From the NCBI GenBank assembly GCA_000165345.1, contig CM000431.1, positions 352,001 to 416,000 on the forward strand: 64,000 bases of DNA, in the 5' to 3' direction. Position 1 is the stretch's first letter, and each line of letters starts with the position of its first letter. A program made the translations under genes and the position numbers. A model generated the notes under the pieces. It did no database searches and was not told the DNA's origin. It was given only the letters and a program-made list of their open reading frames with translations. Shown here piece after piece: positions 6,935-60,543 of the stretch.

Positions 6935-6977
6935 TTGGCGCCACAACACTATGGGCACTTTTTTCGGCGCCAAAATT
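6935..6977. promoter_or_regulatory. Two E2F-like GGCGCC palindromes (TTGGCGCCACAA at 6935-6946, TTTTCGGCGCCAAAA at 6961-6975). They lie in the divergent promoter between the HUWE1-like gene (minus) and prefoldin (plus).
   Basis: Motif seen directly. The position is 120-240 bp from both start codons. Confidence 0.5.
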
Positions 6978-7094
6978 GTGTTGATCCTTTATTTAGAGGG
7001 AAATGCTAGGAATTAAATTAATTAATTAATAATAAAATAAAAAGATACTTGGCGTTTACAAATTTAGGCAATTTTGGAAGAAATTGAAGTAAAA

Positions 7095-7498
7095 ATGGCA
7101 TCAACTAGCAATGAGCATGAACTTATTACCAAGGAATTTTTAGAAACTCAAAAGAAATTTGAGCAAATCAATGAAAGAAGACGTATTTTGGTTGCACAAG
7201 AAAGCGAAAATCAAATGGTCAGTAAAGAGCTTGAATTGTTGGAGAGTGACGCAGTTATTTATAAGCTAGTCGGAAGTGTGATGGTAAAACAGTCTTTAGA
7301 TGATGCAAAAAGCACAGTTTCTAAAAGATTGGAGTATATTACTGGTGAAATTGAAAGTGTCAATAAGAGTTTTGAAAGTTTGCAATCAAAACTTGTTGAA
7401 AAATCTAATCAGGTGAGTTATAATTACCAATTATTTATTACTTTTTTTTAATTAATCTTAAATCTATATTATAGCTACAAAAATTGCAAAAGGCCTAA
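7095..7498 (+). CDS. PFDN6: Prefoldin subunit 6 (beta-type). Two exons, 7095..7412 and 7475..7498; intron 7413..7474 (GTGAGT...ATAG).
   Basis: The track M at 7074 is a TTG; the true ATG is at 7095. LLESDAVIYKLVGSVMVKQSLDDAKSTVSKRLEYITGEIES aligns with human PFDN6 LLDGSNVVFKLLGPVLVKQELGEARATVGKRLDYITAEIKR. Exon 1 ends in phase 0 at the GTGAGT donor. Exon 2 adds LQKLQKA and a stop. Confidence 0.75.
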
Positions 7499-8690
7499 AT
7501 TTATTTTATAGTTATAGTCAATAATCTCACTTTAATTAATATTATAATATTAAATTCAATACATAAATTGTTTTGTTATAAAGAACTTATCTTATTTGTC
7601 TTTCCTCCTCACTATTACTACTTTTTTTTATTTAAAAAAAAAGGAAATATTCCTGTGTTTTTATTTTTCCCAAGTTACTTTCATTCTAGCTTCAATTATA
7701 AAAAAAACTTTCAGCTTCTAGCTCATGTAGAAATCCTTAAAAATTGAAAACTATAAATTTATAAAGTTGCCTTTTCACTTGTAATATTCCAACATATTTA
7801 TTGCCTTTTGGCATTTATATGTTAATTCAAATGATCAATCATTTTCAAGAATTTTAGGCGCCTACCCCACAATAAATGTCAAATTGACGCATGCGCATAG
7901 AAATTTGTTATCATTCTGAATTTAGTCTGCAAATAATATTTAAATAAATTTAAACAAGAAACTAATATTTCTCAAGGATCAAGTGAGAAATATCTACTCA
8001 GAACAAGTCTTACTGACTTCTTACAATCAATATTCACTGCTAAAATTTTATAAAATAAAGAAAAGAAATTAAAATAATAAGGATTTTTAAAAAAAAAGTG
8101 CAACTTCACAATTCAATAAACCTATTTAACTTTCTTGAATTAGCAAATTCCGGTTTACCTCATATTTTATTTGAACCTAAATTTATTCAAATTAAAATAT
8201 TTAAAATTGTTTACAAACATTCCCGCCAAATACACACACATTTATTGGCGCCAACACTTTTCTTTTAAGAATCGAAAAGGTACCAAGTTCTATTGCAAAG
8301 AATCCAAATTTCAATATTTCCTGCAACTGTGATAACGAAAAATATTAGGATTCTGAATGGTATTGGTGAATCTAGACAAAAGTCTTTAAACGTTTTTGTT
8401 ATCTGAAAATAGAGTTGAGTTAATTTTTTTAATAACTATAAAACAACTTTTAGCGCCAATACATTTTTAAATTCAAGGGAAGAACCATTTTTGTATTTAA
8501 AGTTAAATCTCAAAAAATAGGGAATTAGATTCTTAGATAAATGCTTATGCAAACTGAAAGAAAGAAAACGCTCTAAACTTAGGAATAATCCTTTCTAACT
8601 CAGAAGGAAGAAATACCCACTCTTTATTTCAATGAAGCAAATAATCTATATTTATTACCTTCAAGTGACTAGAAGAATTTTATCATCACA

Positions 8691-10085
8691 ATGAAAGAAG
8701 TGGCAGAACTCCATTTGTCCGCATTGATCATTATTACTCTTCTTCTATCTTTTGGTTCTGCACTCTTCTCTGGTCTAACTTTAGGAATGATGACTCAAGA
8801 TCTTTTACATTTGAAAATATCTTCATCCTCAAAGAATAATAAAAATGCTGCTTTTTATGCGAAAAGGCTCTTACCTCTGAGAACTAATGGAAATTTTCTT
8901 CTAGTTACCCTATTATTTGGTAACGTTACCGTTAATACTGGTCTATCTATCTTAATTTCTGAATTAACTTCTGGTTGGCTAGCCTTCACTGTCTCTACTA
9001 TTCTTATTATGATCTTTGGTGAAATCATTCCTCAAGCTATCTGTTCTAGGTATGGTCTTTATATTGGAGGGTTCTTCTCTCCATTTATAAGACTTATTCA
9101 AATTATTCTATTTCCACTGCTAAAACCTATCTCAGTCATTCTTGATAAGGCTGTTGGTAAGACCAACGAAAAGATATACACTAGAGAAGAATTAAATACT
9201 TTACTTGAACATCATTCTAAAAAAGATATCATTTCAGTTTATGAGCTTGGACTTATAAAAAGAGTCATCTTTTCCAACTTTACTTTATCTGATATTATGA
9301 TACAAATTGATGAATTTCATATCTATTATATTGATTCTCAACTTGAAACTAATCAAATTGAAGATTTTATTAAAAAAGGTATTTCGAAGCTTTACATTAT
9401 TGATAATCATTCTACATATTCTGAATTATTCAAAGACGACTTCCAACAATGTTTAACTTATACAAAGAAAAATGATATTATATACTTGGATATTCCTAAT
9501 ACTAATGACCATCAATCTAACTATATTGAATATTCCAATTCCCCAATAACATCAGAAACTTACGATTCCGATTGCTCTATTTGTAATGATTCTCCCCATT
9601 CAAAAAGTGGTATTATATTAGGATATATAGATTTAGATCAGCTTTCAAAACAAAACAAAATTTTTCAAAATAAAAACAATTCAAATCGAATCTCAACTAT
9701 TGTCAATACCAAAAGCTTCATAAGACTAACAAACATTGTTATATCAAATAAAATGATGGATTTGATCAGAAATAAAGATACTCTGTCAATACTTACTAGT
9801 ATCTCTAATATTAAAGATAAAATTCTTTGTATCCAAGGATCAACATCAATCTCAACCTTATTTAATGTGCTCTGTCAGTACAACTTATCGCAAAATGATA
9901 TCATCATTATATACTCAACAATAGGAAATGGACATAAAATAAGATACGACGGAGTAATCACTCTGACAACATTGTATGAGTACATGTTCTCCAGCGAAAA
10001 ATATGTTGTAAATGAACTAAAAGAGGATATATGTAGTAATCTACTATTAAAACATCAACATCCAAATATATCTAGCTATTTCTAA
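8691..10085 (+). CDS. CNNM/Mam3-family putative metal (Mg2+) transporter, with an N-terminal DUF21 transmembrane region and a divergent CBS-pair region.
   Basis: Genuine ATG at 8691. Hydrophobic helices are followed by GEIIPQAICSRYGL, which matches the CNNM PQALCSRHGL motif. Confidence 0.7.
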   Translation: MKEVAELHLSALIIITLLLSFGSALFSGLTLGMMTQDLLHLKISSSSKNNKNAAFYAKRLLPLRTNGNFLLVTLLFGNVTVNTGLSILISELTSGWLAFTVSTILIMIFGEIIPQAICSRYGLYIGGFFSPFIRLIQIILFPLLKPISVILDKAVGKTNEKIYTREELNTLLEHHSKKDIISVYELGLIKRVIFSNFTLSDIMIQIDEFHIYYIDSQLETNQIEDFIKKGISKLYIIDNHSTYSELFKDDFQQCLTYTKKNDIIYLDIPNTNDHQSNYIEYSNSPITSETYDSDCSICNDSPHSKSGIILGYIDLDQLSKQNKIFQNKNNSNRISTIVNTKSFIRLTNIVISNKMMDLIRNKDTLSILTSISNIKDKILCIQGSTSISTLFNVLCQYNLSQNDIIIIYSTIGNGHKIRYDGVITLTTLYEYMFSSEKYVVNELKEDICSNLLLKHQHPNISSYF

Positions 10086-11166: not shown

Positions 11167-11297
11167 TTCCTACTTTGTAATTAAATTTCTAGCCTTTGAT
11201 CTTTCTTTGCAGTCAGATTTTGAACCTTAAGTATTTAATTGTCTTGTGTAGACACCAACTTGAATTATATAACATTAAAAATAAATTTCCTCAAAAG

Positions 11298-11303
11298 CCC
11301 GCC
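11298..11303. promoter_or_regulatory. G-box-like CCCGCC (AAAGCCCGCCTAAAAAA) 130 bp upstream of the Stm1-like gene.
   Basis: Seen in the sequence. Confidence 0.35.
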
Positions 11304-11534
11304 TAAAAAAAAAAAAGAAAGAACCGAATGCAAAATATTATTCAGGAGGTAATATATGGAGGGAAAAATAAGAGTTTGATAGTATTATGATTTACTGAAA
11401 TTAGTAATGAGTTTAAGGGTGGAAGAATTATAAAATTTAGATAAATAGATTATATTAAAATATACTTTATAGTTATAGCTAAGTAAGAGGAACAATACAC
11501 GAATATACAACATAAAAGTTTTGATTACTAGTAG

Positions 11535-12774: not shown

Positions 12775-12825
12775 TTTGGCGCCAAAGTGCGGAACAGCTA
12801 ATTGTCATCGTTTTTGGCGCCAAAC
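12775..12825. promoter_or_regulatory. Two perfect TTTGGCGCCAAA palindromes (12775-12786, 12814-12825). They lie in the divergent promoter between the Nab2-like gene (minus) and the 13006 gene (plus).
   Basis: Seen in the sequence. This is the textbook E2F/DP consensus TTTSGCGCSAAA. Confidence 0.55.
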
Positions 12826-13005: not shown

Positions 13006-14376
13006 ATGAAGGAAGACTCAAATCATGGATTATTATTGGATGTACCATTCACAAGTCCCATTTGCACGATAAATTCAACTGATGACAAGATCTTAGTAGG
13101 AACATGGGATGGTTACTTTTATCAGATTTGTTTAAACAAAAAAGATGATGTAGTTACAGTACAAATAGAACCTTCTTACCCAATAAGGTATATAAGTGCA
13201 TTGAAAGATTCAAACTGTGAAGTAGACCCCCATACTGGGGCTCAGAAGAGCTATGAGCTTATTTTGGGAGGTACATATAGAACAAAAGTAAGAATGAAAA
13301 ATCGGATCAATTCACCTATAACTCCATTGGAAGAGCTTGAGATATCATCAGACTCTCATTACCAAATAATTGAAACAAGATCAAGCCTTGAACCTTTTGA
13401 ATCTCATACTAAAGGAATTGAATTTGGAAACAAGTACCATGGGGGCCCCTTGTTTTTGTTTTCATCAACTATTAATTCGTATTTTGGTTTTAATAGTGAA
13501 AAAGGAGAAATTGAAATATTAATTGGGAATTTTAATCTTCCAGACAGAGAATTTGTTATTTTAGATTATGATTTTCTGAATAACCATTTGCTTATTGTTG
13601 AGAGATCACCAGAAAGATTGGACTATTATGCATTATGTTCACTTCAAATACTTGAACTACCAAATTCCCAGAATTACTTGCAAGAGGAAGTTGATTCAAG
13701 TAATATCACTAATTTAGCAGAAATACCTCCAAAATATATACTAAACTTTCCTATAAAGAATCCTCTCTTTATTACATCTAATATCAAGTCAGATTTAACT
13801 CTTAATTCATCAGCTGAATATAATAACTTTAAAGATTCTACTCACGTATATAAATATCTCTACTCCACAATGTTTTCAATTTCTGACTTCAAAAAACGAC
13901 CTTTGAATATATTCAAGTCAATGTATAATCTTTGTGATGCAAAATTCTGGGGATTTAATTCCTTTATATTTCTTGTTTCAAACCACACAATTATTGCAAT
14001 CGATGTCCTTTTCTCAAAAGATAATGAATTTGTAACTAATACAAACACTAAATGCAAATTCTGCATTAAGTCACCAGATCGAAATATTACATCTATCTCC
14101 ACTACCAATTACAATTACTTGGTTGCATTAACAGAAAAAAACAGAATATTTCTATTAAATAGAAATGGTGAGATTGTGTATTCTATAAGTAATATAACCC
14201 CTAATAAATCCAATTTTAGATGGGTTTGGCCAGCGCATGTATTTGTTACGCACACCGGTACTATAATCTTTTCAACTACCAAAGGGTTATATTATATTCA
14301 CTGTGATTTATTGGACAAAAGAAAAACTCAATTTACGAAGAATCAGAGCTTTATCATAGATTTACCTAATAATTAA
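13006..14376 (+). CDS. Hypothetical protein, 456 aa, no confidently recognisable domain.
   Basis: Genuine ATG at 13006. A long ORF in an AT-rich context with coding-like composition. Confidence 0.55.
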   Translation: MKEDSNHGLLLDVPFTSPICTINSTDDKILVGTWDGYFYQICLNKKDDVVTVQIEPSYPIRYISALKDSNCEVDPHTGAQKSYELILGGTYRTKVRMKNRINSPITPLEELEISSDSHYQIIETRSSLEPFESHTKGIEFGNKYHGGPLFLFSSTINSYFGFNSEKGEIEILIGNFNLPDREFVILDYDFLNNHLLIVERSPERLDYYALCSLQILELPNSQNYLQEEVDSSNITNLAEIPPKYILNFPIKNPLFITSNIKSDLTLNSSAEYNNFKDSTHVYKYLYSTMFSISDFKKRPLNIFKSMYNLCDAKFWGFNSFIFLVSNHTIIAIDVLFSKDNEFVTNTNTKCKFCIKSPDRNITSISTTNYNYLVALTEKNRIFLLNRNGEIVYSISNITPNKSNFRWVWPAHVFVTHTGTIIFSTTKGLYYIHCDLLDKRKTQFTKNQSFIIDLPNN

Positions 14377-14509
14377 CTACTATGTTTTTTCTCACTAAAT
14401 AAATAATTACTTTAATTTCATCCATTTTAAGCTCTTTTCTCCCCCACCTTTGCTTTTTCTTCACAACTTTTTATATTCAAAATTTATATAATTTTATTTG
14501 CATGAATTA

Positions 14510-14515
14510 GGCGCC
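14510..14515. promoter_or_regulatory. GGCGCC element (TTAGGCGCCAAACTC) about 340 bp upstream of RPL14.
   Basis: Seen in the sequence. Confidence 0.4.
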
Positions 14516-14853
14516 AAACTCTCGTCTCGTCTTGAGACAGTTAAAAGTATAAATAATCATAGTAAACTTTTAATAGAAAGTCAACAATGTATTTGTTAAT
14601 TCCGTATTAATTTAATTGCAACTTTTGAATTAAGAATTTAGTTAAAATAAAAAATTATTAAAATTGACAATTTTGTTATTTAATAATAATCCCAAATATA
14701 TTTCAAGGTCAAATATAGAACAAAGAAGTTGTGGCGCGCACCAAAGACAAATATTAATAAAATATAAACGGGAATCTCCAATTCTGAATTTTGATAATTT
14801 AATTATTCCAGAACTTTTAGCCGTTCTATCAAGAAGGTATCAAATAATAGAAA

Positions 14854-15787: not shown

Positions 15788-16117
15788 ATATGAATGATTA
15801 TAGACTTTCTATTTAGAAGTGGGAAGGCTAGCTCGCTAGTTAAATGGTACACATATGTGTTTGCGGAGAGAGAAATGAATTATTATTTCTATTATTTGGA
15901 AGTAGGGTTGGAAAGTTTGAGATCTAAACTAAACCTTTTTTTTCAGGCTTTCTTAGATATTAGATTACTTTGGTAATAATGAAAATACATTCATCGTTAT
16001 TACCTCCTATCTCCATTTAAATTTATAATTTCAAAAGAAGTCTCTTCATTATACCGTAATTTCTGTTTACAGTATTTAATTGTTGTTTTCTTAGTTGTAT
16101 AAATATATAAACACTTC

Positions 16118-16123
16118 GGCGCC
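16118..16123. promoter_or_regulatory. GGCGCC element (CTTCGGCGCCAAAATC) about 95 bp upstream of the RING gene.
   Basis: Seen in the sequence. Confidence 0.45.
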
Positions 16124-16215
16124 AAAATCATCAAAATAATACAATTTCCAAAAAAAAACTTGCCAGAAGAGTTAGTGAGGTTCTGATAGGTGGATGTGTC
16201 ATATTCTTTGAAAGA

Positions 16216-17016: not shown

Positions 17017-17133
17017 AAATCAATGTTTACTAGCAAATACCGGTTTTTACATGCATGGTTACATGCAAATTTGTAAATTTGGTTATAATATAAATATAAA
17101 GAAAAAGAAATCTAAGACATATATTTCCCTGAT

Positions 17134-17724: not shown

Positions 17725-17894
17725 TCCCAAATCTATACCTTAAATCAGAAGCTTAGATTCTAGGTTTAAAAAATATAATACAAAAGAATAAATAGTCAAA
17801 TCTTTTTTATTTCTTAAATTTTTGTTTATCCTAGATTTCTTTAATACCAAATTCCTTTAATTACATTATTTAGTTTTATTTTCAAAGTAGTTTA

Positions 17895-17910
17895 GGCGCC
17901 AAAGCATGTA
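17895..17910. promoter_or_regulatory. GGCGCCAAAGCATGTA composite element 175 bp upstream of centrin.
   Basis: Seen in the sequence. Confidence 0.45.
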
Positions 17911-22535: not shown

Positions 22536-23081
22536 ATCATCTAATTAATTAAACGATACCCGCAGATTTGCCGCCTTAATTTGGGCGGTAATGTGCCCCC
22601 TCGGAACATTCATAAATAGGGAAGAGTATAGATTAAAGGAACAGCTAAGAAAAAATAGGGATTTTTTTTTCTTAAATCAATTAATACTTAGAATTAAGGA
22701 AATACTAAAGTGTTGCTACTAATGTTGCCGTTCAATAAATAAATCTTTTATTAAACAACAACTGGTGTTATAATAAAGAAAACTTTCTTTTATCTATCTC
22801 TAACTCCTTACTGCAAAGTTGATATACCATATAAAATTAACATCGTCCCTCCGTACCAGCATCCAAGAGTGTATATCTCATGGAAGTTCGTATTACAATA
22901 ACATGTATCTGACTCAATATAATAGTCTTCCTAGATAAATAGCAAGTATAAGCTAATATATTATGTCTTAGAATTAGAGCTCATATTCCTTCTCTTCCTC
23001 CCTTAGATAATCTCAACATGGCTCATGCTTAAGTGTAAATACAAACGTTACTGCGGAGTGAGCCATAGAGATAGACAGAAT

Positions 23082-23585: not shown

Positions 23586-23925
23586 TGTGATTTACTACCC
23601 TAATTAAATAATCTGTACAAAAACTTGGAAAATTATCCCTAATTCAGTTTGTCTAAACTCTGGAGTTTCCTTTATTTGCCTCCCGTCTTTTTTAACTTTA
23701 ATAGTTAAATTGTTTGCCGCCCAGCTTCCCCGTCTACAATTACATTATAATAAATAATAAAGGTACTATATAAGTTGAATAACAACTTAATAATAAATCT
23801 AAAATAATAAATATTATAATTTATATTTAATAACAATTTTATTTTACATTATTTAACTCAATTAAATGGATAAATTACATTTAATATTTATATAAACAAT
23901 ATTAATAAAATTGAGTCAATGGTTT

Positions 23926-23931
23926 GGCGCC
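23926..23931. promoter_or_regulatory. GGCGCC element (GGTTTGGCGCCAAATAC) about 340 bp upstream of RPL12.
   Basis: Seen in the sequence. Confidence 0.45.
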
Positions 23932-24192
23932 AAATACTATTATTTATAGATTACTATTAAAGAATTTGAATAAATTTAAAATTCGAATTCAGTCAATAGA
24001 TAAGAACATAGACTTTCAGAAATAGCAAAAAAGAATCGAGTAGATAAGAACTTTAGATTTTGTATTACTAATATAGGGTGATCTTTCAGTAGTTGATTTA
24101 AATGCTAGCTAAATATATAGTTTTGTATTCAATAGATATTGAACTTTAATAAAGTTATATATGAATAAAGAAGATAATAAAACCAATAATAT

Positions 24193-25113: not shown

Positions 25114-25510
25114 TTATATATTTATATATAGGAAGTAAACCCTATCAGTTTGTGTTTAAAGTAAAAAAGAAAAAAATAGTTTGTTAGAGATGTTCGGTAT
25201 TAAAGAATATTCACCAAAAGACTTTGTAGACAGATTTTAAATCATAGAATAACAAATATTCTGTTAACCCACACAAATTCTTGCTCAGTTTTATCTACAA
25301 TACCATCCAAATCAATCAAATGATCAAACTTCTTTTTCTATGTATTACTGTTTTTCTCCACTTTGAAAATACAATCACTACGTGTTAGTTATATTTATAC
25401 AAAAGTACTATACTAACATATATAATACTTTTTTATTTGGAAAAAAAAAATCTTACAATAATTATTTAGTTTTATATATTACTTAATTATTCTAATATAC
25501 AATTAGTTTT

Positions 25511-25516
25511 GGCGCC
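25511..25516. promoter_or_regulatory. GGCGCC element (TTTTGGCGCCAAACACG) about 400 bp upstream of the UBX gene.
   Basis: Seen in the sequence. Confidence 0.4.
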
Positions 25517-25548
25517 AAACACGAACCAATAACATGCAATAATAAAAG

Positions 25549-26148: not shown

Positions 26149-26343
26149 TCTTTTTACCAAAAATTTTTATAAACTTAGTCACTTAACAGCTAATTCTTCA
26201 AAAATGATAACTTCCTTTTAATAAGTTCTTGTAAAATCTGCTATATTTAATTATGCAACTTTTCTGCAATTGAAATTTGAACAGCTCAATTTTATTAATA
26301 TTCAAACTGAAGGCAATAATAATAATAAAATATATTGACATTA

Positions 26344-26358
26344 GGCGCCACTTTCATG
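26344..26358. promoter_or_regulatory. GGCGCCACTTTCATGTA composite element about 200 bp upstream of the histone-fold gene.
   Basis: Seen in the sequence. Confidence 0.4.
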
Positions 26359-27039
26359 TATTTTGATTATTGCAAGAATTGGCAAAAAAAAATTATTCAA
26401 GGTAAAAATCTACACACATGCATACGTGGGATTATCAATTTTAATATTAATAAAAATGAATCAATAAATCATAAAAATAAACTCAATAAGTTCTTTTTTT
26501 TATCATTCCTTTTAAAATTGGAGTGTATGCAAAAAGTCTTACATGGTATTTAGTTGGATTTTCTAACCTGTTTAATATAAAAAAGACTTTAAGTAGATTT
26601 TAATTCCTCTTCTTCCTTCCCCATAAATATATTGCATTTCAATTAAATCTTATGTAAAATAAACAAGAGGTCATAGTAGTAATACTAAGAAATGATTGTT
26701 TAACACTTAATCAGAAATTTTTTTTTCCCCCAAACATTTTTAAATAGTGAATATTTTTGTGTGCAATTAAATAAATCACTATATGTGTGATTAAATGTGA
26801 ACCCTCAACAAGTGATAAATGCACCTAATTAGAATTATAATAAGAGAATTTTTTAGGGAGACTTAACATTTAATAAACTTGAAGAAAGTGTATTTCTCGT
26901 ACTTGGAAACTATTTAAAAAACTCAACTCAATATTATTGAGGAATAGTACAAACTCTGGAGTAACTTTGTAGATATTAGATATTTCACACTTTATTTAGC
27001 AGCCAAACTGAGCTCAAGACCATTTATGGAAGTTAAAAA

Positions 27040-30603: not shown

Positions 30604-30708
30604 CGGGCTCGCTTTCTATAAATAGTAACTTCGCCCGGTCAATTTATCTCGAAATGTAAAGTTTAACTGGTCGGTCAATTTAAAGTCTTTTTTAATCAAA
30701 ATGTCTTC

Positions 30709-30776
30709 CCGCCTAAAAAATGACTATCCTTGTAGAAAATTATAGGGGGAATGTAATAATTGAACGTTTTGGCGGG
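30709..30776. promoter_or_regulatory. CCCGCC (30709-30714) and TTTTGGCGGGC (30767-30777) G-box/E2F-like elements 110-170 bp upstream of NMD3.
   Basis: Seen in the sequence. Confidence 0.4.
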
Positions 30777-36851: not shown

Positions 36852-36868
36852 GGCGCCAAAAACATGCA
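36852..36868. promoter_or_regulatory. CGGCGCCAAAAACATGCA composite element upstream of the first IQ gene.
   Basis: Seen in the sequence. A second element, TTTTGGCGGGAAACAATTCCATG, is at 37308-37330. Confidence 0.4.
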
Positions 36869-39192: not shown

Positions 39193-39415
39193 CTAATTTG
39201 ATATAACTTCCCGCTTTTAAATAAAAACATTTAGACCGAAAACCCATTAATTCACTTATTCTTTGAAAACACCTTATCATAATGCTATCGAATAGGTTTA
39301 CTTAATTAGAAGGAAATTATTTTTGTATTTTAATTGATATTTAATTCTATTCATCTCTTCCTAGTTTCCTACACTTTTATTATTACTCACAATTTACATG
39401 CAAAATAACAACGTT

Positions 39416-39433
39416 GGCGCCAAAATACCCGCC
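39416..39433. promoter_or_regulatory. GTTGGCGCCAAAATACCCGCC, a GGCGCC plus G-box element 420 bp upstream of the second IQ gene.
   Basis: Seen in the sequence. Confidence 0.4.
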
Positions 39434-39836
39434 TAATAATGTATGCTTTAGACTAAATAACTAGGTCAAATTAAACAAATAATAGTAATTAATACTAAAT
39501 TGATAATATAGAGTGGTAAAAACGTAAAACTCTAATTAAAACGGCTAAAAATAAGGAAATAATTTATTATTAATTTATGATTGTGATCATAATAATAACA
39601 TTTTAGTAGAATTATCACACTTTAAAGATTTATTCAATAAAGCTGGATACTAATTAATAAAATTATTTTTGTAAATTGTGTATTAATCAATTGAGTAAAA
39701 TTTCGTGATCATACTGGTCTAAGCTACTTTTTTGTAATAATAATAATTGTTACTATTAGAATATTTACAAAAGTAAAGCTAATTAAGTAGATTTTTGAAA
39801 AGTAATGGTTAAAGGGACACTACAATACCTTTGAAA

Positions 39837-41795: not shown

Positions 41796-41900
41796 TATTG
41801 TAATTAACATTTAGTTTTTGGCATATCCACATTTATGATATGTGTAATTTATTAAGTTATTTTTTTCTAAAATATTTGCATCTTTCAAACCTTTATTATT

Positions 41901-41906
41901 CCCGCC
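41901..41906. promoter_or_regulatory. CCCGCC (TTATTCCCGCCAGATC) 180 bp upstream of the HYPK-like gene.
   Basis: Seen in the sequence. Confidence 0.35.
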
Positions 41907-42083
41907 AGATCTAAATTAGTATTACTTAGGGTAACTAGGCAAAATAATAGAAATTCAAAGTTAAAAAAAATAATAACAAATTATATTAATAAATCAGAAT
42001 TATTAATATATAGCATATGCCTTATAAAAGGTTTTTGTTAATTAAAGCTAGCTGTAATATTAATATAATTGTTTATACTGATC

Positions 42084-42512: not shown

Positions 42513-42518
42513 AATGGT

Positions 42519-42556
42519 GGCGCCAAAGTCATGTATTTTGGTTAGTGTTTGGCGCC
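42519..42556. promoter_or_regulatory. Two GGCGCC elements (GGTGGCGCCAAAGTCATGTA at 42516-42535, TTTGGCGCCAATC at 42548-42560) 270-310 bp upstream of the 42828 gene.
   Basis: Seen in the sequence. Confidence 0.45.
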
Positions 42557-42827
42557 AATCTACAATAAATAATTAAGGGGTACCTATTATTTAAGGAGAA
42601 AAGAATGCAAAAAGGTTTGTAGAAAAATTGTTCAAGTCTAAGGGAGAATTTCTTAAGAAATATATAGTTTTGTAGAGTGAAGGCTGAAATATAAAATTTT
42701 TGTTTGAAGGTTCAAAGGTATTTTGGTAGTGGATCATGATCTTTTGATTGTGTGGGAATAAGTTAATAATATTAGAGTACACACTGAAGCTATTGAGTTA
42801 ATTAGTTGGAGGAGATTGTACAAGAAA

Positions 42828-45357: not shown

Positions 45358-45385
45358 CGTTTTCCCGCCTGCGCCACATGCAAAA
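45358..45385. promoter_or_regulatory. TTTTCCCGCCTGCGCCACATGCAAAA composite element (G-box + GCGCCA + CATGCA) 310 bp upstream of the PFK gene.
   Basis: Seen in the sequence. Confidence 0.45.
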
Positions 45386-45690: not shown

Positions 45691-48600
45691 ATGAGTAACT
45701 ATAAACAAACTGAACTAAAAAGAAACAAGGGCGATTCAAGAGATGTTTCACTACTTTCTGCTTCAAGCTTGCATGAAGGCCAATCAAACATGCAAATGTG
45801 GAGGAGAAGGTGGGAGCCATGCCTACCACACATACTAAGATCCCCGTTATCTATTAAGGAAGTTTCAGCTTTTGAAGGAATGGGGAAAATGGAAAGATCT
45901 GACGTTTCTGCCTATTTTCCTTTAACATCTGGAAACAGTTTGGTGAAGTTTGAGGCCATTTCAGATGGAAGTAGCTCATGGAAGAAGTTTCCCGCCAGAA
46001 GAATCGGAGTAGTATTATCGGGAGGTCAGGCCTCAGGAGGTCATAATGTGATTGCTGGATTAATGTCTTATATTAAACTTTGTAACCAAAGTAGTCAGCT
46101 TTTTGGATTTTTAGGAGGCCCAGAAGGAGTATATAGTGGGAGATACAGAGAGTTAACTGAAGATGATATTAACGGTATACTTAACCAGGGAGGGTTTAAT
46201 ATTATTTGTTCAGGCCGTCACAAAATTGAAACAGAAGAACAAATGAGAGCTTCCTTGGAGATTTGTGAAAAACTCAAATTACATGGCCTAGTAGTAATAG
46301 GAGGAGATGATTCTAATACAAATGCAGCAGTTCTAGCAGAATACTTCAAACGTAACTCGTCTAGTACAGTAGTTGTAGGATGTCCCAAGACCATAGATGG
46401 AGATTTGAAAAACGAGGTAATTGAGACATCTTTTGGTTATGATACAGCAGTGAAAACTTATAGTGAACAGATTGGAAGTATTATGGATGCAATTAAAACT
46501 GAGGGATACGGATACTATTTTGTAAGGTTGATGGGAAGATCTGCATCTCACATTACTTTAGAATGCGGTCTTCAGACTAGAGCGAATATGATCTTGATTG
46601 GAGAAGAAATTAAGGAAGAGAACAGATCTTTGATGTCGATAGTAGACGAAATTGTAGAAATGATTCTAAAAAGAGATTCACTGGGAAAGAAACATGGAAT
46701 TGTATTATTACCCGAAGGGTTAATAGAGTTTATTCCAGAATTTGAGACTTTAATCAAAGAATTAAATCTTATTTTGCTTAAAACTAACGATAGAAAACAG
46801 ATTATAGATAGCTTAAGTCAAGAAATGAAGACTCTTTTCTTGGAGCTTCCTTCAGATGTACAAAATCAGCTCCTTTTAGAAAGGGATCCACATGGTAACG
46901 TTCAAGTAGCAAAGATAGCAACAGAAGAGTTGTTAGTACACATGGCAAAAGAAAAACTTGAGAGGGTAAAGAAGGATTATATTTTAGACAATGTTAAGAC
47001 TCACTACTTTGGATATGAAGGAAGATGCGCTTTACCTTCAAATTTTGATGCAAGTTATTGCTTTGCTCTTGGACATACTGCAGCAGCTCTTATAGACAAT
47101 CAGCGTTCAGGATATATGGCAGTAGTCAGGAAGCTAAGCTTAACTCCTGAACAATGGGAACCAGCAGGATGTCCTCTTACATATATGATGAATATTGAGC
47201 TTAGAAAAGGGAAGTCTGTTCCCGTTATTAAGAAGTACTTAGTAGATCTTAAAGGACAATCTTACTTAGCTTATTGTCAAGTTAGATCTGAGTGGAAGTT
47301 GAATGATTATTACAGAAATCCAGGACCAATACAATTTGATGGTCCTAATTCCGGAGTAACTAATTATATGATTTCTCCTCCAAGAGTGGAGGATTTACTT
47401 AGAATGGAGGATAGATGCGAGAATAAAATGAGTCATAAATTATCAGGGTCAGAAAGCTCTCAAAATAGATCAAAGGACGACATGAAGATACAGAAGATCC
47501 TTCTTTCAACAGCTTCCAAGTTTAACGATGATCTAATCATTTCCTCCTCATGCAGAGATTTAGATGCTTACATTATTACTAAATGTTTACCTCATCAGAC
47601 TGGGAGACACAACAGCAAAATACTACAATTAAAAGAGGAGGAATACTCATCAGGATTCACAGAGATAAGAGAGAACAGCCAGTCAAAATCTTCCATGGGT
47701 AATTCACTAGCTTGTGAGTCACTTGGATTAATTCTATCATGCCTTTCAACTCCTGGTACTCAGAATGTAATTTGTGGACTAGTCAATGGACTACCATCGC
47801 TTAAACAGCTTATAGTTTTTAAGTCTCTCTCAGACTTTTCAGAAGGAAAAGCTCTAAAAGTCGATCTTACTTCCGAAGGATCATTGGCTTTCTTTGAGAA
47901 TTCTCTCAATTCTGGAGGCTGTATATTCCCAAATGGAGTAGAAATAAAAATGAATGTCTCAGAAAAAAAGAGCTCAAATACAACTTTAAAAGCTAATGAT
48001 AACCAAGAATTCACAAACAGCTCTTGCGTTCTTTCATGCAAAGGGCTAGTTAGTAATGACTTCCTCTCTCAACTCTTGTCATTTTTTAATATGCGTGCAA
48101 TTGCAATTGTGGGGAACAGTGAGGCGGCAACGTTTGGCGCCTCTATATCGGAGCAATTAATTTGCATGTCGTTAAATGGCATGAAGAGTGAGATCCCAGT
48201 AGTGTTTGTTCCAGTTTGCTTGGAAAACAGTATTTCTCATCAAATGATTGAGACATGTATTGGATTTGACTCTGTAACTAAGAGTATTTCAACTTTGGTT
48301 GGAAATCTGTTAACAGATTCAGCTTCAGCAACAAAGTATTGGTATTTCATGAAGATGATAGGCGATAAGACTTCAAATGTTGCTTTAGAGGTTGGAATAC
48401 AAACTCATCCAAATTTGGTTGTAATTCCAGAAAGATATGCAGATGGAAAACTTTCAGTTTATGGTTCAGAAATGGCTGGGGTCACTTTAGATGATATTAT
48501 TACTGAAATTTGTGATATAATTTGTTTGAGATCTAATCAGGGAAATAATTTTGGCGGGCTCCTGGTATCAGAAGGTCTTTTTGACCAGGTATACCCAACA

Positions 48601-49674: not shown

Positions 49675-49732
49675 TTCAATTACACATTTTGGCGGTAAGG
49701 CGCCAAAATGTGTGCAATCATATATTTTACGA

Positions 49733-50038
49733 AAAATTTAGTCCGAGATGAATCTCGCGAATCACTGAGATGCCAGGAAGTTACACAACTACTGTTATCC
49801 TTACACCGTACTACAGCGAACCCTTTTCCGTGCTCTGTTTCCAGCCTCCGGCGGTACGGGTTTCACTATCTCACAAGTCACCTCGGTCTCCACCAAGGCA
49901 ACTCTAGAGACTGCAGCCTTGTAATGGGCAGCCATCGTGCAATGTTACTTCCGGGATGTAGTGACACAGTATCCCATCCTAAACCTTTAACGACTCCACT
50001 TGGTTACAGCTGGGCGTTATCCCAGCCAGTCACTATCT
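49733..50038 (-). ncRNA. Signal recognition particle RNA (SRP/7SL RNA), about 305 nt, transcribed on the minus strand. Ends are approximate (±10 nt).
   Basis: Sharply GC-rich island in an AT-rich genome. The minus-strand read GUGAAACCCGUACCGCCGGAGGCUGGAAACAGAGCACGGAAAAGGGUUCGCUGUAGUACGGUG parallels the human 7SL S-domain GGUGAACCGGCCCAGGUCGGAAACGGAGCAGGUCAAAACUCCCGUGCUGAUCAGUAGUGGG (helix 8 GNRA loop GGAAAC, AGCA.GG, AAAA bulge). The minus-strand 5' end GGCUGGGAUAACGCCCAGCUGUAACC is Alu-domain-like (compare CCUGUAGUCCCAGCUACU). The 3' end runs into UUUUU (plus-strand 49732-49736), a pol III terminator. An AT-rich TATA-like stretch and TTTGGCGGGAA lie within 70 bp upstream (plus coordinates 50040-50107). 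The overlapping track ORF 49708-50040 is spurious. Confidence 0.7.
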
Positions 50039-50096
50039 AATGTTTTAGAATTTAGATTATTAAATACTTTACAATACTTTTGAATGACGGCTATTA

Positions 50097-50107
50097 TTTG
50101 GCGGGAA
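50097..50107. promoter_or_regulatory. TTTGGCGGGAA element placed between the divergently oriented SRP RNA gene (about 60 bp away) and the Kish gene (about 145 bp away).
   Basis: Seen in the sequence. Confidence 0.45.
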
Positions 50108-50249
50108 CTTACAGCTCATTTATTTTATATTTGTGAAATAGAGGGGGTGGTAAGAATATAAAAAATAAGCTGATATAATCATTGAAATTATTACAATTAT
50201 TGTTAGAATTGGCTGAGTGAAGATATTTCACAGTTAGTTCTCGATCAAA

Positions 50250-51319: not shown

Positions 51320-51473
51320 TTGACTAAAAGGCTTCGAATCTTAATTATGAATATATAAAAAGCTTTATGTAAATTCAACTTCCTTGTTTTTCTTTATTTG
51401 GCTTTCACAATTTTTGCCAAACTAGTTTTTTCATTTGATTATAACTTCTATTAAGAAAAAATGCTATCAGTTT

Positions 51474-51479
51474 GGCGCC
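51474..51479. promoter_or_regulatory. GGCGCC (CAGTTTGGCGCCTTTTAAG) about 155 bp upstream of the SARNP-like gene.
   Basis: Seen in the sequence. Confidence 0.4.
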
Positions 51480-51866
51480 TTTTAAGAAAATATTTAAATG
51501 AAAATAATAAAATATATGAAAGGATTTAAATGGTTAAAAAGAAAAAAAAGTAAATTTAGAAATAGTGAAACAAAGTGGGATATTTAAAATAATTACCTTT
51601 TAGATGGTTTGATTCATTTTAGCACTGCTTTTGAGCCAAAATCGATGCTTTAAATACTTATAGTTTAATTATCCCCCCTTAATTTGCTATTATAATAGTT
51701 TTAAATATGCATTATATGAATAGAACCTAAAGTAAAGATTGATAATATGCTTAATACAAATTTGGTTTCAATAAAAGCGGCCCACAATCTCCTTATTTGG
51801 AATGAAAATAGGCATTATTGCAACTTGCAAATGAGTGTAATATAGTGAATGTGTCAATTTCCGTAC

Positions 51867-52544: not shown

Positions 52545-52668
52545 ATATTCCGTATCTCTGAATTCCTCAGATCTATCTTTACTACCTATTTTAGCTTCAG
52601 TATAAGCGATTTACTTCTTTTCCTTTTTTTCTCTCTCTAATGAATAGTCCATTAATATGTAAAAAAAA

Positions 52669-52690
52669 GGCGCCAAATTCATGCAATGTT
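52669..52690. promoter_or_regulatory. AAGGCGCCAAATTCATGCAATG composite element 125 bp upstream of the WBP4-like gene.
   Basis: Seen in the sequence. Confidence 0.45.
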
Positions 52691-53803: not shown

Positions 53804-54049
53804 TTCCAATATCTGCTTGCTTTTTACCAACTTATTTCCCTAGCGTTTTATACTTGTATTTTTAAACAGCTATTGCTTCACCAGCCTATAGCTAAGTAAA
53901 ACTTTAACCTAATCCTATAAATCCCAATATACAACCAATGCAATCCCAATATAAATAATATATTCACTCACACCTTTCTTTGTTTCTTTTCCCCTTTATT
54001 TGTCATTTTCCTACTTGTAATATAAATACCACATAGGTACCTCACCCTT

Positions 54050-54254
54050 GGCGCCATTTATGCTGACTTTAAAAAAAAAATACTTGTAAATGAAATAAAA
54101 TCGATCAAAGCAGCAAGCAATCTATATCCCAAATTAGTTATCACTATAAATACAAGAATCAAAAGTTCTACTAATTTTATATTCACCCTTTTTTTACTTT
54201 ACAAATATTCATCAGAAATTTATTGACAAATTGGCGCCACACCAATTTGGCGGC
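54050..54254. promoter_or_regulatory. Three E2F-like elements in the divergent RFC / GAF-gene promoter: CTTGGCGCCATTTA (54047-54060) and AATTGGCGCCACACCAATTTGGCGGCACATTG (54229-54260).
   Basis: Seen in the sequence. Confidence 0.45.
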
Positions 54255-54651
54255 ACATTGTGGGGAGATTGTTTGAAAAAGAATGTTGAGCAGAAATTAT
54301 AAAGCTGGGTGAAAATACATTTTTTTTTTTTAAAAATTTCAATTCGTTCGAATACTGTGCAATATTTGAGTAAAAGGCAAGTTAAAATTACTCTGGCTGA
54401 TTTCTTTTCTAGACAGGAGCAACGGCATCAATGTATGTCTGACAGTGGTCTAAGGAAAGCAGGCAAAATAATAATCGTCAAGTTTTAAATGACTAATTAT
54501 TTAAATAATTATACGCACACAGTAAAATTTAAGCTCAGGATTGGTAGCCTTGACATTCTTCAATTTGGTTCTGTTTATTTCTCTCGATTTTCTCTTTTTT
54601 TTTGAAGCATTTGAATGTGAGCGCAAATCAACTATTTTTGCAAATTGTTAG

Positions 54652-56412: not shown

Positions 56413-57357
56413 CTATTTGATTCTCCCAACATTCCTCTTTAAGTTGGTTTGATATGGGACACCCTGAACCTGAATCTGAGTCTGATTTGAATTTGATATT
56501 TGTTGTCTTTTTTGACAAACCTTAGCAGAAGTCAAAAATAACTGATAATTGTATAATTGGTTTAAGAAGCCTGGATTTGGCGCCACATAGGGCCTAGACA
56601 ACTTAATTAGATTTAAAGCTTGTAAAGAGCTAATCCCTAGTTCTCTCATTAGAAAGGCCGTACAAATTGTTGGAGCTCTGCTAATACCAGCAGCACAATG
56701 TATGTAGACATTATTAGGTCTTTCCACAGTAGATTGAGATAGTGCATTGTGAATAAAATCAAAAGATGAGGAGAAATATTTACTAATATCTTCAAATGGA
56801 GTATCATAAATAGGGATATTCAAATACAAAAATTCATTTGGAAACTTGCATGCACCCTGTAGACAACATACAATGTGAGTAATTCCAAGGTCCTTAAGTT
56901 TTTTTAAATCATTTGCTACAGTGCTTCCTCCTAAGAAAATTCCAGGAATAATCCTTTGGGCTCTGTGAAGATCCAAATTCTCTTTATTAGAATACTGGAC
57001 CTCTTTTTGAAGGATATCCCTGAAACCCAAACGATTGATTGAGCTGATGATAGTCCTCATATTACTTTCAACTTTCTCTTCATAATCTTCAATTGTGCTT
57101 TTTGGAGAAGTTACAAGTGCTCCATACAAGCTAATAACTTGGTCTAAAGAGCATATTAAGCTTATTGTTTCTTGTATCTGCATCCCTTTCATAGGCTCTG
57201 GCGTCTTTCTTTTCAACTGATGGAGAATGCGTAAAGCTGCAAAATAAAAGTTTACTCTCTCTGGTAAAATTAATTCTGATTCAGTTGAACCGCTGATATT
57301 CTCAACAACTGCCATCCTCTCAGATCTTTTATCTATTAGTCTCTTCAAGGCCTCCAT
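56413..57357 (-). CDS. Dual-specificity protein phosphatase (DUSP).
   Basis: ATG at 57357. The active-site loop VYIHCAAGISRAPTICTAFLM fits the HCxxGxxR signature. A general-acid Asp lies upstream (IPIYDTPFEDI). Confidence 0.8.
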   Translation of the reverse strand: MEALKRLIDKRSERMAVVENISGSTESELILPERVNFYFAALRILHQLKRKTPEPMKGMQIQETISLICSLDQVISLYGALVTSPKSTIEDYEEKVESNMRTIISSINRLGFRDILQKEVQYSNKENLDLHRAQRIIPGIFLGGSTVANDLKKLKDLGITHIVCCLQGACKFPNEFLYLNIPIYDTPFEDISKYFSSSFDFIHNALSQSTVERPNNVYIHCAAGISRAPTICTAFLMRELGISSLQALNLIKLSRPYVAPNPGFLNQLYNYQLFLTSAKVCQKRQQISNSNQTQIQVQGVPYQTNLKRNVGRIK

Positions 57358-57429
57358 TTATTATTTAATTTCTCAACAAACATTTAAAAAAAAACCTTTA
57401 AGTCAATAATTCAATAATGCACACAAGTA

Positions 57430-57440
57430 CCCGCCAAAAG
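57430..57440. promoter_or_regulatory. CCCGCCAAAAG about 75 bp upstream of the DUSP gene.
   Basis: Seen in the sequence. Confidence 0.35.
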
Positions 57441-57749
57441 TCTTAGAAAAATTATTATTGACTTTTATAGAGAGAAATATATTGTATATATATTTTGTGG
57501 CATATTTAATGATTAAAACATACATATTTAGTATTTGAGTTTCTTATATTAGTGCTATACTATGCTTCGTGTTCTTCTGACTTAATTTTGTATTAATTTT
57601 CCGTTCAAAAATTAACTATTACAGTCTTGAAGTCAGTTTATTTTTTAATATAGACTTGAATTTTTATATTAGCCTTACTTTACAAAGAAATCTGAGAGGT
57701 AAATGCACATATTTGTAGTATATATGGTAAAATGTACAAAATAAAATTG

Positions 57750-57770
57750 CATGTAGTTGGCGCCAATACA
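57750..57770. promoter_or_regulatory. ATTGCATGTAGTTGGCGCCAATACA composite element about 250 bp upstream of the PP2C gene.
   Basis: Seen in the sequence. Confidence 0.45.
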
Positions 57771-59843: not shown

Positions 59844-59858
59844 GCCTGAGATACTGAT

Positions 59859-60269
59859 TCATAATGCATCATCTTCCTTACTACCTCTTGATCTAATAGA
59901 ATTATTTATCCACTCATTCTTGGAGTCTCCATTTCCATTTATACTGTCTGAAACATGAAGGACTTTAAAAACGCCTTTGTTTAATTGACAAACTATCGAA
60001 ATTAACCTTCCTTTTTGGACGAGTTCCTCAATGAGTCCCCTATAAGTCTTTATAGTATCTTCATGGAAATTGTCACAGTTTGCATCATTCAGCTTGTCCT
60101 TGATTGAAACTCTAATATTGGAGGTTCCGTCATCCAACGTAATCATATCCAATTCTCCATCTTGATCTATCTCAACATCAACCACAAAACCGTGAATCCA
60201 ACAACAATCTCCATCTTCCAGAATCTTCTCTGGAACCTCGCAGATGAACATTTTTGGTGTGATTTTCAT
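59859..60269 (-). CDS. Small hypothetical protein, 136 aa, possibly an OB-fold-like beta protein; no confident family.
   Basis: ATG at 60269 (MKITPKMFICEVPEKIL...). It is 15 bp from the PP2C stop and convergent with it. Confidence 0.45.
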   Translation of the reverse strand: MKITPKMFICEVPEKILEDGDCCWIHGFVVDVEIDQDGELDMITLDDGTSNIRVSIKDKLNDANCDNFHEDTIKTYRGLIEELVQKGRLISIVCQLNKGVFKVLHVSDSINGNGDSKNEWINNSIRSRGSKEDDAL

Positions 60270-60537
60270 CGTTTCCCCTCTAATTTACACACAATTACAC
60301 ATGAAATTAACCTTTTCCTTTAGTCCTTGCTTTTATTATTTTAATAATGAGAGATTCTGTATATTAACTAAGTTATACAACAACTTTTGTACCTCAGCTC
60401 CATTTAGTCTGTAAGAAGAAATCTTTTGGAAAAAAAACTTTCATCTCATAATTTTTTTCTTGTAATTCTTTTTCGGTACCGTACCCACATGAGTTTGCCG
60501 CTCGTTTCTAATATTTCCAATAAAAATTACGCGTTTG

Positions 60538-60543
60538 GCGCCA
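60538..60543. promoter_or_regulatory. GGCGCC (ACGCGTTTGGCGCCAATTGTG) in the divergent promoter, about 270 bp from both the 60269 (minus) and 60812 (plus) start codons.
   Basis: Seen in the sequence. Confidence 0.45.

Follow-up and report, generated by a model that had tools for sequence, protein, structure and literature searches.

Conserved E2F-like promoter sites and a CATG(C/T)A element at a fixed distance in a 64-kb window of Cryptosporidium parvum

Introduction

In mammalian promoters that lack a TATA box, for example the DHFR promoter, E2F sites are found at the initiation site. An E2F-related site can also be read jointly with a neighbouring element: in the pair formed by the cell cycle-dependent element and the cell cycle genes homology region (CDE/CHR), the DREAM complex contacts the CDE via E2F4/DP and the CHR, 4 nt away, via LIN54 (PMC3287175, PMC4974476). 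In the present work, we analysed the E2F-like sites with the core GGCGCC in a stretch of 64,000 nucleotides of Cryptosporidium parvum (GenBank assembly GCA_000165345.1, contig CM000431.1, positions 352,001 to 416,000 of the forward strand), which is called the window and is numbered from its first letter. About a quarter of these sites were accompanied by a CATG(C/T)A hexamer that is placed one helical turn away. The evidence comes from this window and from the orthologous loci of other Cryptosporidium species.

The single motifs have been described before. The E2F-like motifs 3 (DTTGSCGCCH) and 4 (TTTGGCGGGAAV) are over-represented upstream of C. parvum genes, where they were found for 114 and 47 co-expression clusters, respectively (Oberstaller et al. 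2013, PMC3734150). E2F was named the most over-represented upstream motif of the genome (PMC3734150), which was repeated in a later study (PMC4117751) and in a 2025 review, and it was located upstream of 161 of 200 co-expression clusters (PMC4117751). PMC3734150 credits Bankier et al. 2003 with the first mention of an E2F-like motif, on chromosome 6. In sporozoites, the motif is dominant in the peaks of the assay for transposase-accessible chromatin (ATAC-seq; bioRxiv 10.1101/2025.01.17.633476). C. parvum is reported to encode two or three E2F proteins and two DP proteins (PMC3734150, PMC4117751, PMC12246861), and none of their genes is located in the window.

Over-representation upstream of C. 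parvum genes was reported for the AP2_1-like motifs BGCATGCAH and ACATGY as well (PMC3734150), and the AP2 domains of cgd2_3490, cgd1_3520, cgd8_3230 and cgd5_4250 bind TGCAT in vitro, as determined on protein-binding microarrays (PBM) with isolated domains and generic probes (PMC4117751). E2F and AP2_1 motifs co-occur upstream of 17 long non-coding RNAs (lncRNAs; Li et al. 2021, PMC7840661). How the motifs are oriented, spaced and combined was left to be worked out (PMC3734150). The 2025 review does not mention composite, cooperative or co-occurring elements, and literature searches with the composite sequence strings gave nothing relevant. A spacing rule was not described in the literature that was searched; Bankier et al. 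2003 and the 2024 Nature life-cycle paper were outside this search and may hold an earlier mention. The upstream GGCGCC motif is real but not new, and the phased partner is apparently new.

A CATG(C/T)A element at a fixed distance from GGCGCC

GGCGCC was found 25 times in the window, compared to 0.66 +/- 0.79 copies expected from dinucleotide shuffles, and 23 of the 25 copies were intergenic (Fisher p = 2.6e-11; 28% of the window is intergenic). Control hexamers such as GGTACC or GAATTC showed no comparable intergenic bias. In a sequence-only reading of the window, it had been noticed that the palindrome is frequently followed by CATGCA or CATGTA after 2-6 nt. The positions of CATG were counted from the first G of GGCGCC and both sides of each palindrome were folded. 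Six half-sites had a CATG that starts at offset 11 and one had it at offset 10; no other offset was seen more than once. The gap between GGCGCC and CATG is thus fixed at 5 nt, with 4 nt at 17895, and does not range from 2 to 6 nt. The centres of the two palindromes (GGC|GCC and CA|TG) are 10 bp apart, or 9 bp at 17895. CATG at offset 11 in 6 of 50 half-sites compares to 0.12 expected (p = 2e-9), which confirms the tight association.

An unbiased scan was done with every 4-, 5- and 6-mer at each offset from 6 to about 55. Outside the AAA flank of the core, CATG at offset 11 was the strongest signal and remained at about 6e-4 after correction for about 260,000 tests. When the 4-mer scan was repeated with 25 intergenic positions drawn at random, the observed value was reached in none of 1000 such sets, and the 0.1% quantile of this null distribution was about 200-fold weaker than the CATG signal. 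The 17-nt pattern GGCGCCNNNNNCATGYA had 6 matches, compared to 0.00 in the shuffles. The preferred spacing is therefore sharp within the window.

Taken together, 7 of the 25 GGCGCC sites are composites. The partner reads CATG(C/T)A in all seven, CATGCA in four and CATGTA in three, and its (C/T)A end always faces away from the E2F core. The predicted 12-bp footprint of E2F/DP would end 2 bp short of CATG. The seven copies have flanks that do not resemble one another, and we therefore rejected the idea that the composites arose from a dispersed repeat or a duplicated promoter.

Five composites are on the plus strand. GGCGCC-AAAG-CATGTA (17892-17910), the one with offset 10, is located 173 bp 5' of an EF-hand gene, and GGCGCC-ACTTT-CATGTA (26341-26360) in the divergent spacer of a 199-aa and a 514-aa gene. 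GGCGCC-AAAAA-CATGCA (36849-36868) is 821 bp 5' of a gene for a 488-aa IQ protein, GGCGCC-AAAGT-CATGTA (42516-42535) is 306 bp 5' of COG6 and GGCGCC-AAATT-CATGCA (52666-52685) is 127 bp 5' of the zf-U1 gene. The two composites on the minus strand are GGCGCC-TAATT-CATGCA (14499-14518), 341 bp 5' of RPL14e, and GGCGCC-AACTA-CATGCA (57748-57767) in the divergent spacer of DSP and PP2C. The sequence-only reading had listed the examples at 17895, 36852, 52669 and 57750-57764 (here 57748-57764) and, as weaker variants, those at 26344 and 42519, and had missed the mirror-image composite at 14499-14515. Two of its examples had to be removed: 49699 has no CATG, and 45364 has a different core and spacing. 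The latter is a double core (45361-45382, plus strand) 5' of PFK that reads CCCGCC-TGCGCC followed by A-CATGCA, so that CATGCA is 13 nt (or 7 nt) away; in C. felis it reads CCCGCT-CCCGCC-A-CATGCA and in C. canis the hexamer is CATACA. An orientation rule relative to the gene was also rejected, since the split of five distal to two proximal CATG halves is not significant.

A weak second class has CATG(C/T)A at about twice the distance. At 25508-25538 (plus strand), between the UBX and the 199-aa gene, the E2F-like TTTGGCGCCAAA (core at 25511) is accompanied by CATGCA at offset 22, and at 39395-39436 (minus strand) GGCGCC (39416) with an adjacent CCCGCC (39428) has CATGTA at offset 21. The distance of 21-22 nt corresponds to about one further helical turn, which suggests a dependence on the face of the helix.

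Another spacing was observed 5' of the IQ 488-aa gene. A GGCGGG-type site (37312-37332) has CATGTAA(AAA) at offset 15, which differs from the 11-nt rule. It reads TTTGGCGGGAAA with CATGTAAAAA (37309-37332, plus strand) and is matched with equal spacing in C. felis (position 11919 of locus L009) and, with the core inverted, in C. ryanae (position 11688 of locus L010). The site and the composite at 36852 are both found in a spacer of 1.38 kb (36296-37675) that has no annotated gene. At the start of the matching spacer of C. canis, a 278-aa gene is called on the minus strand just 3' of the methyltransferase gene, and the spacer may contain an unannotated transcript in C. parvum.

The G-box, which is another AP2 motif, was tried as a second phased partner and rejected, because it was found in one orthologous group and one other case and gave no pooled peak. 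The orthologous group is found 5' of the GAF gene, where GTGGGG is located 10-11 nt from GGCGGC or GGCGCC in C. parvum, C. canis and C. felis. In the window, GGCGCC (54233) is followed after 16 bp by GGCGGC (54249), and GTGGGG starts 11 nt from GGCGGC (54230-54265, plus strand; 54233-54265 from the first core); the arrangement is retained in C. canis and C. felis. For this one group, the G-box may be a second kind of phased partner.

Conservation of the composite in other species

Syntenic loci that together cover about 3,000-64,000 of the window were compared from C. ubiquitum (L005), C. canis (L006, L008 and L011), C. felis (L009 and L012), C. bovis (L007 and L013), C. ryanae (L010) and C. 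muris (L014, 21.6 kb). The gene order was unchanged in all of them. Among the 5' spacers that these loci cover and in which C. parvum has a core, the same spacer had a core in 8/8 cases in C. ubiquitum, 18/19 in C. canis, 15/15 in C. felis, 11/13 in C. bovis and 5/7 in C. ryanae. When the spacers were compared with the core as an anchor, the identity outside of both elements was mostly 20-50% and the flanks were essentially unalignable.

Of 16 orthologous sites, 10 had CATG(C/T)A at offset 11 exactly, where the chance per site is about 0.1%. The retaining species are C. ubiquitum, C. canis, C. felis and C. ryanae. In the C. canis locus L006, the composites are retained at 47% GC, compared to 31% in the matching stretch of C. 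parvum. Pooled over all loci, offset 11 was counted 14 times, offset 10 once and offsets 21-22 three times, with 0.09 expected per offset. The bases between the core and CATG vary among sites and species (TAATT, TAAAT, TAAGT and so on), and selection is hence acting on both cores and their distance and not on a longer word.

At the individual promoters, the RPL14e composite is retained in C. ubiquitum and C. canis and lost or changed in C. bovis. The EF-hand promoter has offset 11 in C. ubiquitum and C. canis, 10 in C. parvum and 22 in C. bovis. In the 199-aa/514-aa spacer, C. canis has GGCGCC-ACTTT-CATGCA and the composite is lost or changed in C. felis. The same holds for COG6 in C. felis, and C. 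ryanae reads GGCGCC-AAAAC-CATGTA there. The zf-U1 composite is identical in C. canis, reads CGCGCC-AAAGT-CATGCA in C. felis and is lost or changed in C. bovis. The DSP/PP2C composite is retained in C. felis and, with the core GGCGGC, in C. canis; C. bovis has neither the core nor an adjacent CATG, and C. muris only TTGGCGCT and no CATG. For 36852, the same spacer of C. felis and C. ryanae has neither GGCGCC nor the composite, and the C. canis contig ends before this position.

Three other conserved elements were noted near these promoters. On the gene side of the RPL14e composite, the palindrome GTCTCGTCTTGAGAC (14524-14538), which occurs once in the window, is invariant in four species including C. 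bovis. Further downstream, a GGCGCG-type site 118 bp 5' of RPL14e (14729-14752) is part of the block TTGTGGCGCGCACCAAAGACAAAT, which is conserved with few substitutions in four species, again including C. bovis. In the 3'-3' spacer of the RING and EF-hand genes, which has no E2F site, the tandem AP2_1-type TACATGCATGgtTACATGCA (17048-17067) is conserved in C. ubiquitum and C. canis as CATGCATGCATGCA. Its role may be that of a promoter for antisense transcripts or of a 3'-end element.

The C. muris locus has only two GGCGGG/CCCGCC sites, and half-site-like TTGGCGC or TAGCGC are found at orthologous promoter positions. In the gastric species, the motif may be present in a weaker form or in a different one. 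Upstream motifs were stated to be similar across the genus (PMC5146892).

Placement and consensus of the E2F-like core

The gene map was built from long open reading frames (ORFs), public gene calls and the orthologous loci. It has 34 protein genes, mostly without introns, and one gene for the signal recognition particle (SRP) RNA. The window is gene-dense, with a GC content of 29-36% except for a single stretch of 43%. Its 456-aa protein (13006-14376) has identical copies in GCA_015245375.1 (CP044420.1) and GCA_048859185.1 (CM109963.1), and its closest homologues are from Cryptosporidium hominis, C. ubiquitum, C. canis and others.

For 31 of the 34 genes, the upstream spacer has at least one GGCGCC, GGCGGG or GGCGCG core, in most cases at a distance of 75-450 bp from the ATG. 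One or two copies are present in each of the seven divergent spacers. The 3'-3' spacers are empty except for GGCGCG at 56337 and GGCGCC at 49699. The near-universal upstream core and its sharing by divergent genes, as seen in the sequence-only reading, were thus borne out, and the over-representation to which it referred is the one already reported (PMC3734150). The core was also described as very rare in coding sequence with one exception in DSP. It is rare there, but two GGCGCC are coding, at 48136 (PFK) and 56579 (DSP), as well as 5 of the 17 GGCGGG/CCCGCC variants, the other 12 being intergenic.

Three genes have no clean upstream core, among them the 14-3-3 gene and a protein kinase gene whose upstream region is cut off by the window end. 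Upstream of the 14-3-3 gene, the pair TTGCCGCC..GGGCGGTAA (22571-22592) is inverted and degenerate and has G-boxes nearby, and the orthologous positions in C. ubiquitum and C. canis have clean CCCGCC..GGCGGG pairs.

With up to two mismatches, the 12-mer TTTGGCGCCAAA was found 28 times, compared to 1.9 expected; four copies are perfect and nine have one mismatch. The flank positions +1 to +3 are A in 66-80% of the half-sites, compared to 34% in the background. The A/T flanks around GGCGCC make the consensus the classical E2F/DP 12-mer. The sites correspond to the E2F/DP site TTTSGCGCSAAA in their SGCGCS/GGCGGG core, which is flanked by a T-rich stretch on the 5' side and an A-rich one on the 3' side, in their promoter-proximal placement with depletion from coding and 3' regions, and in their positional conservation between species with unalignable flanks. 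The palindromic SGCGCS core, the T/A flanks, the promoter location and the cross-species conservation thus fit the reading as an E2F/DP consensus, for which the literature uses the same label (PMC3734150, PMC4117751, bioRxiv 10.1101/2025.01.17.633476).

Further E2F-like sites in the window

The divergent spacer between a large gene (minus strand) and the prefoldin gene (plus strand) has cTTGGCGCCAcA (6934-6945) and its twin TTCGGCGCCAAA (6963-6974) 29 bp apart; the copy retained in C. ubiquitum and C. canis is the one at 6963. Far upstream of CNNM, TTAGGCGCCTAC (7854-7865) is followed by CCCCACA and retained in C. ubiquitum, and a pair of CCCGCC (8222) and GGCGCC (8247) is located 441-466 bp 5' of the same gene (8219-8255). 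A CCCGCC-type site (11295-11306) 134 bp 5' of a 290-aa gene is retained in C. ubiquitum, C. canis and C. bovis. In the divergent spacer of the PWI gene and the 456-aa gene, two perfect TTTGGCGCCAAA copies are 38 bp apart (12775-12824). C. ubiquitum and C. canis have the 32 nt between them (12778-12821 with the cores; aaagtgcggaaCagctaattgtcat...) nearly unchanged. This conservation greatly exceeds that of the spacer background and suggests further binding sites or a start region.

The RING-finger gene has TTCGGCGCCAAA 95 bp upstream (16115-16126), and TTTGGCGCCAAA (23923-23934) is found 5' of an RPL11/L12-type ribosomal protein gene. An inverted pair of CCCGCC (30708) and GGCGGG (30771) in the divergent spacer of NMD3 and a ubiquitin-like gene (30705-30779) is retained in C. 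canis and C. felis, and a pair of CCCGCC (35076) and GGCGGG (35119) is located 5' of the methyltransferase gene (35073-35127). A CCCGCC-type site (41898-41909) is 180 bp 5' of a small intron-containing 108-aa gene. COG6 has a second E2F-like site, TTTGGCGCCAAT (42548-42559), 32 bp from 42519. The SAP-domain gene has TTTGGCGCCTTT (51471-51482) 157 bp upstream, retained in C. canis, C. felis and C. bovis. In the divergent RFC/GAF spacer, an E2F-like site (54047-54058) follows a conserved GGTACCTCACCCTT. A CCCGCC-type site 75 bp 5' of DSP (57427-57438) and TTTGGCGCCAAT in the divergent 136-aa/325-aa spacer (60534-60545) are both retained in C. canis and C. felis.

The GGCGCC in the DSP coding sequence (56576-56587) was rejected as a functional site. 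It encodes Val-Ala-Pro of a conserved DSP motif, for which other codons are used in C. felis, C. bovis and C. muris, and it is a coding coincidence as judged from this recoding. In the PFK coding sequence, TTTGGCGCCTCT / TTTGGCGCC (48133-48144) arises from the rare codon pair GGC-GCC (Gly-Ala). This pair is found in the same alignment column in C. parvum, C. canis and C. felis, and C. bovis has AGT-GCA. The PFK site could be a selected internal E2F site, as part of an internal or antisense promoter, rather than a chance occurrence.

The SRP RNA locus

The SRP RNA gene is located at 49774-50013 (minus strand), just 3' of PFK and on the opposite strand (Rfam RF01856, 150 bits). Orthologous genes are found at the same place in C. 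canis, C. felis, C. bovis and C. muris. A 110-aa ORF (49708-50040, plus strand) that is annotated in GCA_048859185.1 overlaps it and is probably a spurious call. GGCGCC at 49699 (49696-49707), which the sequence-only reading had counted among the promoter copies, is located where PFK and the SRP RNA gene face each other with their 3' ends, is neither conserved nor composite, and was rejected as the promoter of this ORF.

In the spacer between the SRP RNA gene (minus strand) and the DUF1242 gene (plus strand), an E2F-like site TTTGGCGGGAAC / TTCCCGCC (50097-50108) is located about 70 nt 5' of the SRP RNA gene. It is adjoined by an invariant GCCGTCAT block and an AAATTC..AAAA block. These elements (50040-50110) are at conserved positions in C. 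canis (L011, 5432-5510), C. felis (L012, 5471-5548) and C. bovis (L013, 5040-5117). They may be an external promoter of the SRP RNA gene, which is presumably transcribed by RNA polymerase III, that uses an E2F-like element or shares it with DUF1242.

Discussion

The enrichment of the motif, its location, the fixed spacing and the conservation between species were observed directly. The identity of both binding proteins, their cooperativity and the effect on transcription we infer from the arrangement of the sites. We favour an E2F/DP site beside which a second factor, most likely an ApiAP2 protein of the TGCAT type, has its own site on the same DNA face, and give this reading a probability of about 0.55. 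GGCGCC and GGCGGG would be the E2F/DP-type promoter elements of Cryptosporidium, with one or two in each 5' intergenic region and common to divergent gene pairs, and would presumably bring E2F/DP heterodimers to the part of the promoter that is free of nucleosomes. Some of the sites, 7 of 25 GGCGCC here, belong to the composite (TTT)GGCGCC(AAA)-NN-CATG(C/T)A with the cores one helical turn apart. Since the centres are phased by 10 bp, both sites are expected on one face of the helix, where a second sequence-specific protein would bind beside E2F/DP and bind or act jointly with it. Selection keeps this second element and its spacing, and the bases between and around them drift. The output could then be distinct for a subclass of otherwise generic E2F promoters.

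An ApiAP2 protein is favoured as the partner because CATGCA, the hexamer of four of the seven composites, is in the AP2_1-like family (BGCATGCAH, ACATGY), which is bound in vitro by four AP2 domains. The candidates would be the four TGCAT/ACATGY-binding proteins cgd2_3490, cgd1_3520, cgd8_3230 and cgd5_4250. Cooperative binding of E2F/DP and an AP2-like factor, as proposed in the sequence-only reading, is plausible.

Several observations weigh against this reading. Our literature search found no data for Cryptosporidium E2F/DP from chromatin immunoprecipitation (ChIP), cleavage under targets and release using nuclease (CUT&RUN), DNA affinity purification sequencing (DAP-seq) or PBM, and no binding data for E2F/DP or a partner at these sites. 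No AP2 motif is among the top motifs of the open chromatin of sporozoites (bioRxiv 10.1101/2025.01.17.633476). Three of the seven composites have CATGTA and hence no TGCAT core, and only 17895 among them also reads ACATGY (on the opposite strand). The full palindrome TGCATGCA is found in none of the seven; its only two copies in the window, at 2631 and 56847, are coding. The sample is small, with 7 independent instances in 64 kb, since the orthologues are not independent gains. The genes have no obvious function in common (RPL14e, EF-hand, COG6, zf-U1, PP2C/DSP and hypotheticals), and the Pfam annotation of the window proteins gave no functional theme among the composite-bearing genes. The rule also decays in C. 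muris and in the C. bovis/C. ryanae branch. In C. bovis, none of the orthologous sites has an offset-11 composite and one is shifted to 22, the composite is lost at two C. felis sites, and the 21.6 kb of C. muris have no GGCGCC at all. These losses in C. bovis, C. felis and C. muris mean that the rule is lineage-limited or tolerant of turnover.

Among the alternatives, a core-promoter module is unlikely but is the one that we take most seriously. CATG(C/T)A would mark or position the start of transcription, with the E2F site about 10 bp off, at or just inside the transcribed region, as in the mammalian promoters without a TATA box. The module would set the place and direction of the RNA polymerase II start, possibly also for antisense or bidirectional transcripts. 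The CATG half is distal to the nearest gene start in five of the seven composites (14510, 17895, 26344, 52669 and 57759), so that transcription from CATG would cross the E2F site on its way to the gene. Core-promoter elements are typically strictly spaced, bidirectional promoters were described as frequent in C. parvum, and many antisense lncRNAs have E2F and AP2_1 motifs in the 100 bp upstream of them (PMC7840661). However, Li et al. observed no clear spacing between these motifs and the start sites of lncRNAs (PMC7840661), the ratio of 5:2 is not significant and CATG is on the gene side at 36852 and 42519. The implied 5' untranslated regions would be 127-341 nt long. The class with 21-22 nt and the wobble between 10 and 11 better match a phasing between proteins, and a start at CATG has no direct support since there is no cap-based map of start sites for C. 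parvum.

Somewhat less likely still is a single complex with two contacts, in which CATG(C/T)A would be read by a subunit of the E2F complex or by a protein with two domains, as in DREAM. The geometry is near that of CDE/CHR, where the fixed spacer is 4 nt (PMC3287175) and not 5 nt as here, and C. parvum was reported to retain some partners of the E2F complex (DP1, RPD3 and LIN-53; PMC3734150). The second element is not TTYGAA, however, and the offsets of 21-22 nt together with the conserved GGCGGG site with offset 15 disfavour the rigid footprint of one complex.

It is improbable that GGCGCC is bound by a factor other than E2F/DP, in which case the name would be a resemblance only and the composite would serve one or more other factors. 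We found no paper that shows the binding of Cryptosporidium E2F/DP to the motif. On the other hand, the motif matches the 12-bp E2F/DP consensus exactly, including the T/A flanks, and the two forms that plants and animals are known to have, the palindrome and GGCGGG, both occur here. Among apicomplexans, E2F/DP genes were reported to be kept in the genus Cryptosporidium alone, and the motif dominates its promoters; none of the C. parvum AP2 domains assayed by PBM binds it (PMC4117751). Finally, chance, base composition or duplicated promoter sequence as the source of a spacing that was first spotted by eye in only seven instances of one window can be dismissed almost entirely after the unbiased scan with its family-wise permutation and the 0 matches in shuffles, and given the unrelated flanks and the retention in species with otherwise saturated spacers and a different GC content.

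To return to E2F/DP with an ApiAP2-type neighbour, a genus-level grammar may tentatively be proposed, although the odds are somewhat against it: about a quarter of the E2F/DP sites in the intestinal lineage would be tied at one turn to CATG(C/T)A as the site of an ApiAP2 or other factor, and the E2F/DP system, which is ancestral, and the AP2 system of apicomplexans would cooperate directly on a defined subset of the promoters. If true, this would be the first composite cis-element with a fixed spacing described in an apicomplexan. The gene regulation of Cryptosporidium is poorly understood. The E2F motif is found upstream of most genes with any timing of expression and alone cannot explain stage-specific expression. 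A locked and conserved partner is a specific hypothesis that would divide the E2F promoters into classes and provide a handle on how one ubiquitous motif gives different expression programmes. If the rule fails genome-wide, the remainder is a confirmation of the known motif.

When compared to known systems, the composite would be like the initiation-site E2F of promoters without a TATA box in that a palindromic TTTCGCGCCAAA-type site near the start has a role in promoter architecture and not that of an enhancer at a distance, and to our knowledge no CATG partner is known for that mammalian case. With the E2F motifs of Oberstaller et al., the core shares sequence, organism, upstream location and near-ubiquity, so that the single motif is no different; the site-by-site conservation in six other species, the near absence from the C. 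muris locus and the phased partner go beyond them. As in the AP2_1 family, CATGCA holds the TGCAT core on the opposite strand and several composites read ACATGC; unlike this family, the partner is the half-palindrome CATG(C/T)A, never the full TGCATGCA, at 11 nt from the E2F core. The closest analogue is CDE/CHR, where a second hexamer is likewise found behind an E2F-related GC-rich element, at a short and fixed distance, and both are read jointly. In CDE/CHR, the second element is TTYGAA, bound via LIN54, the spacer is 4 nt and the orientation is tied to the gene, whereas here the spacer is 5 nt, both orientations occur and the genes are not obviously cell-cycle genes. In conclusion, the sequence of its second element makes the composite an analogue of CDE/CHR and not a member.

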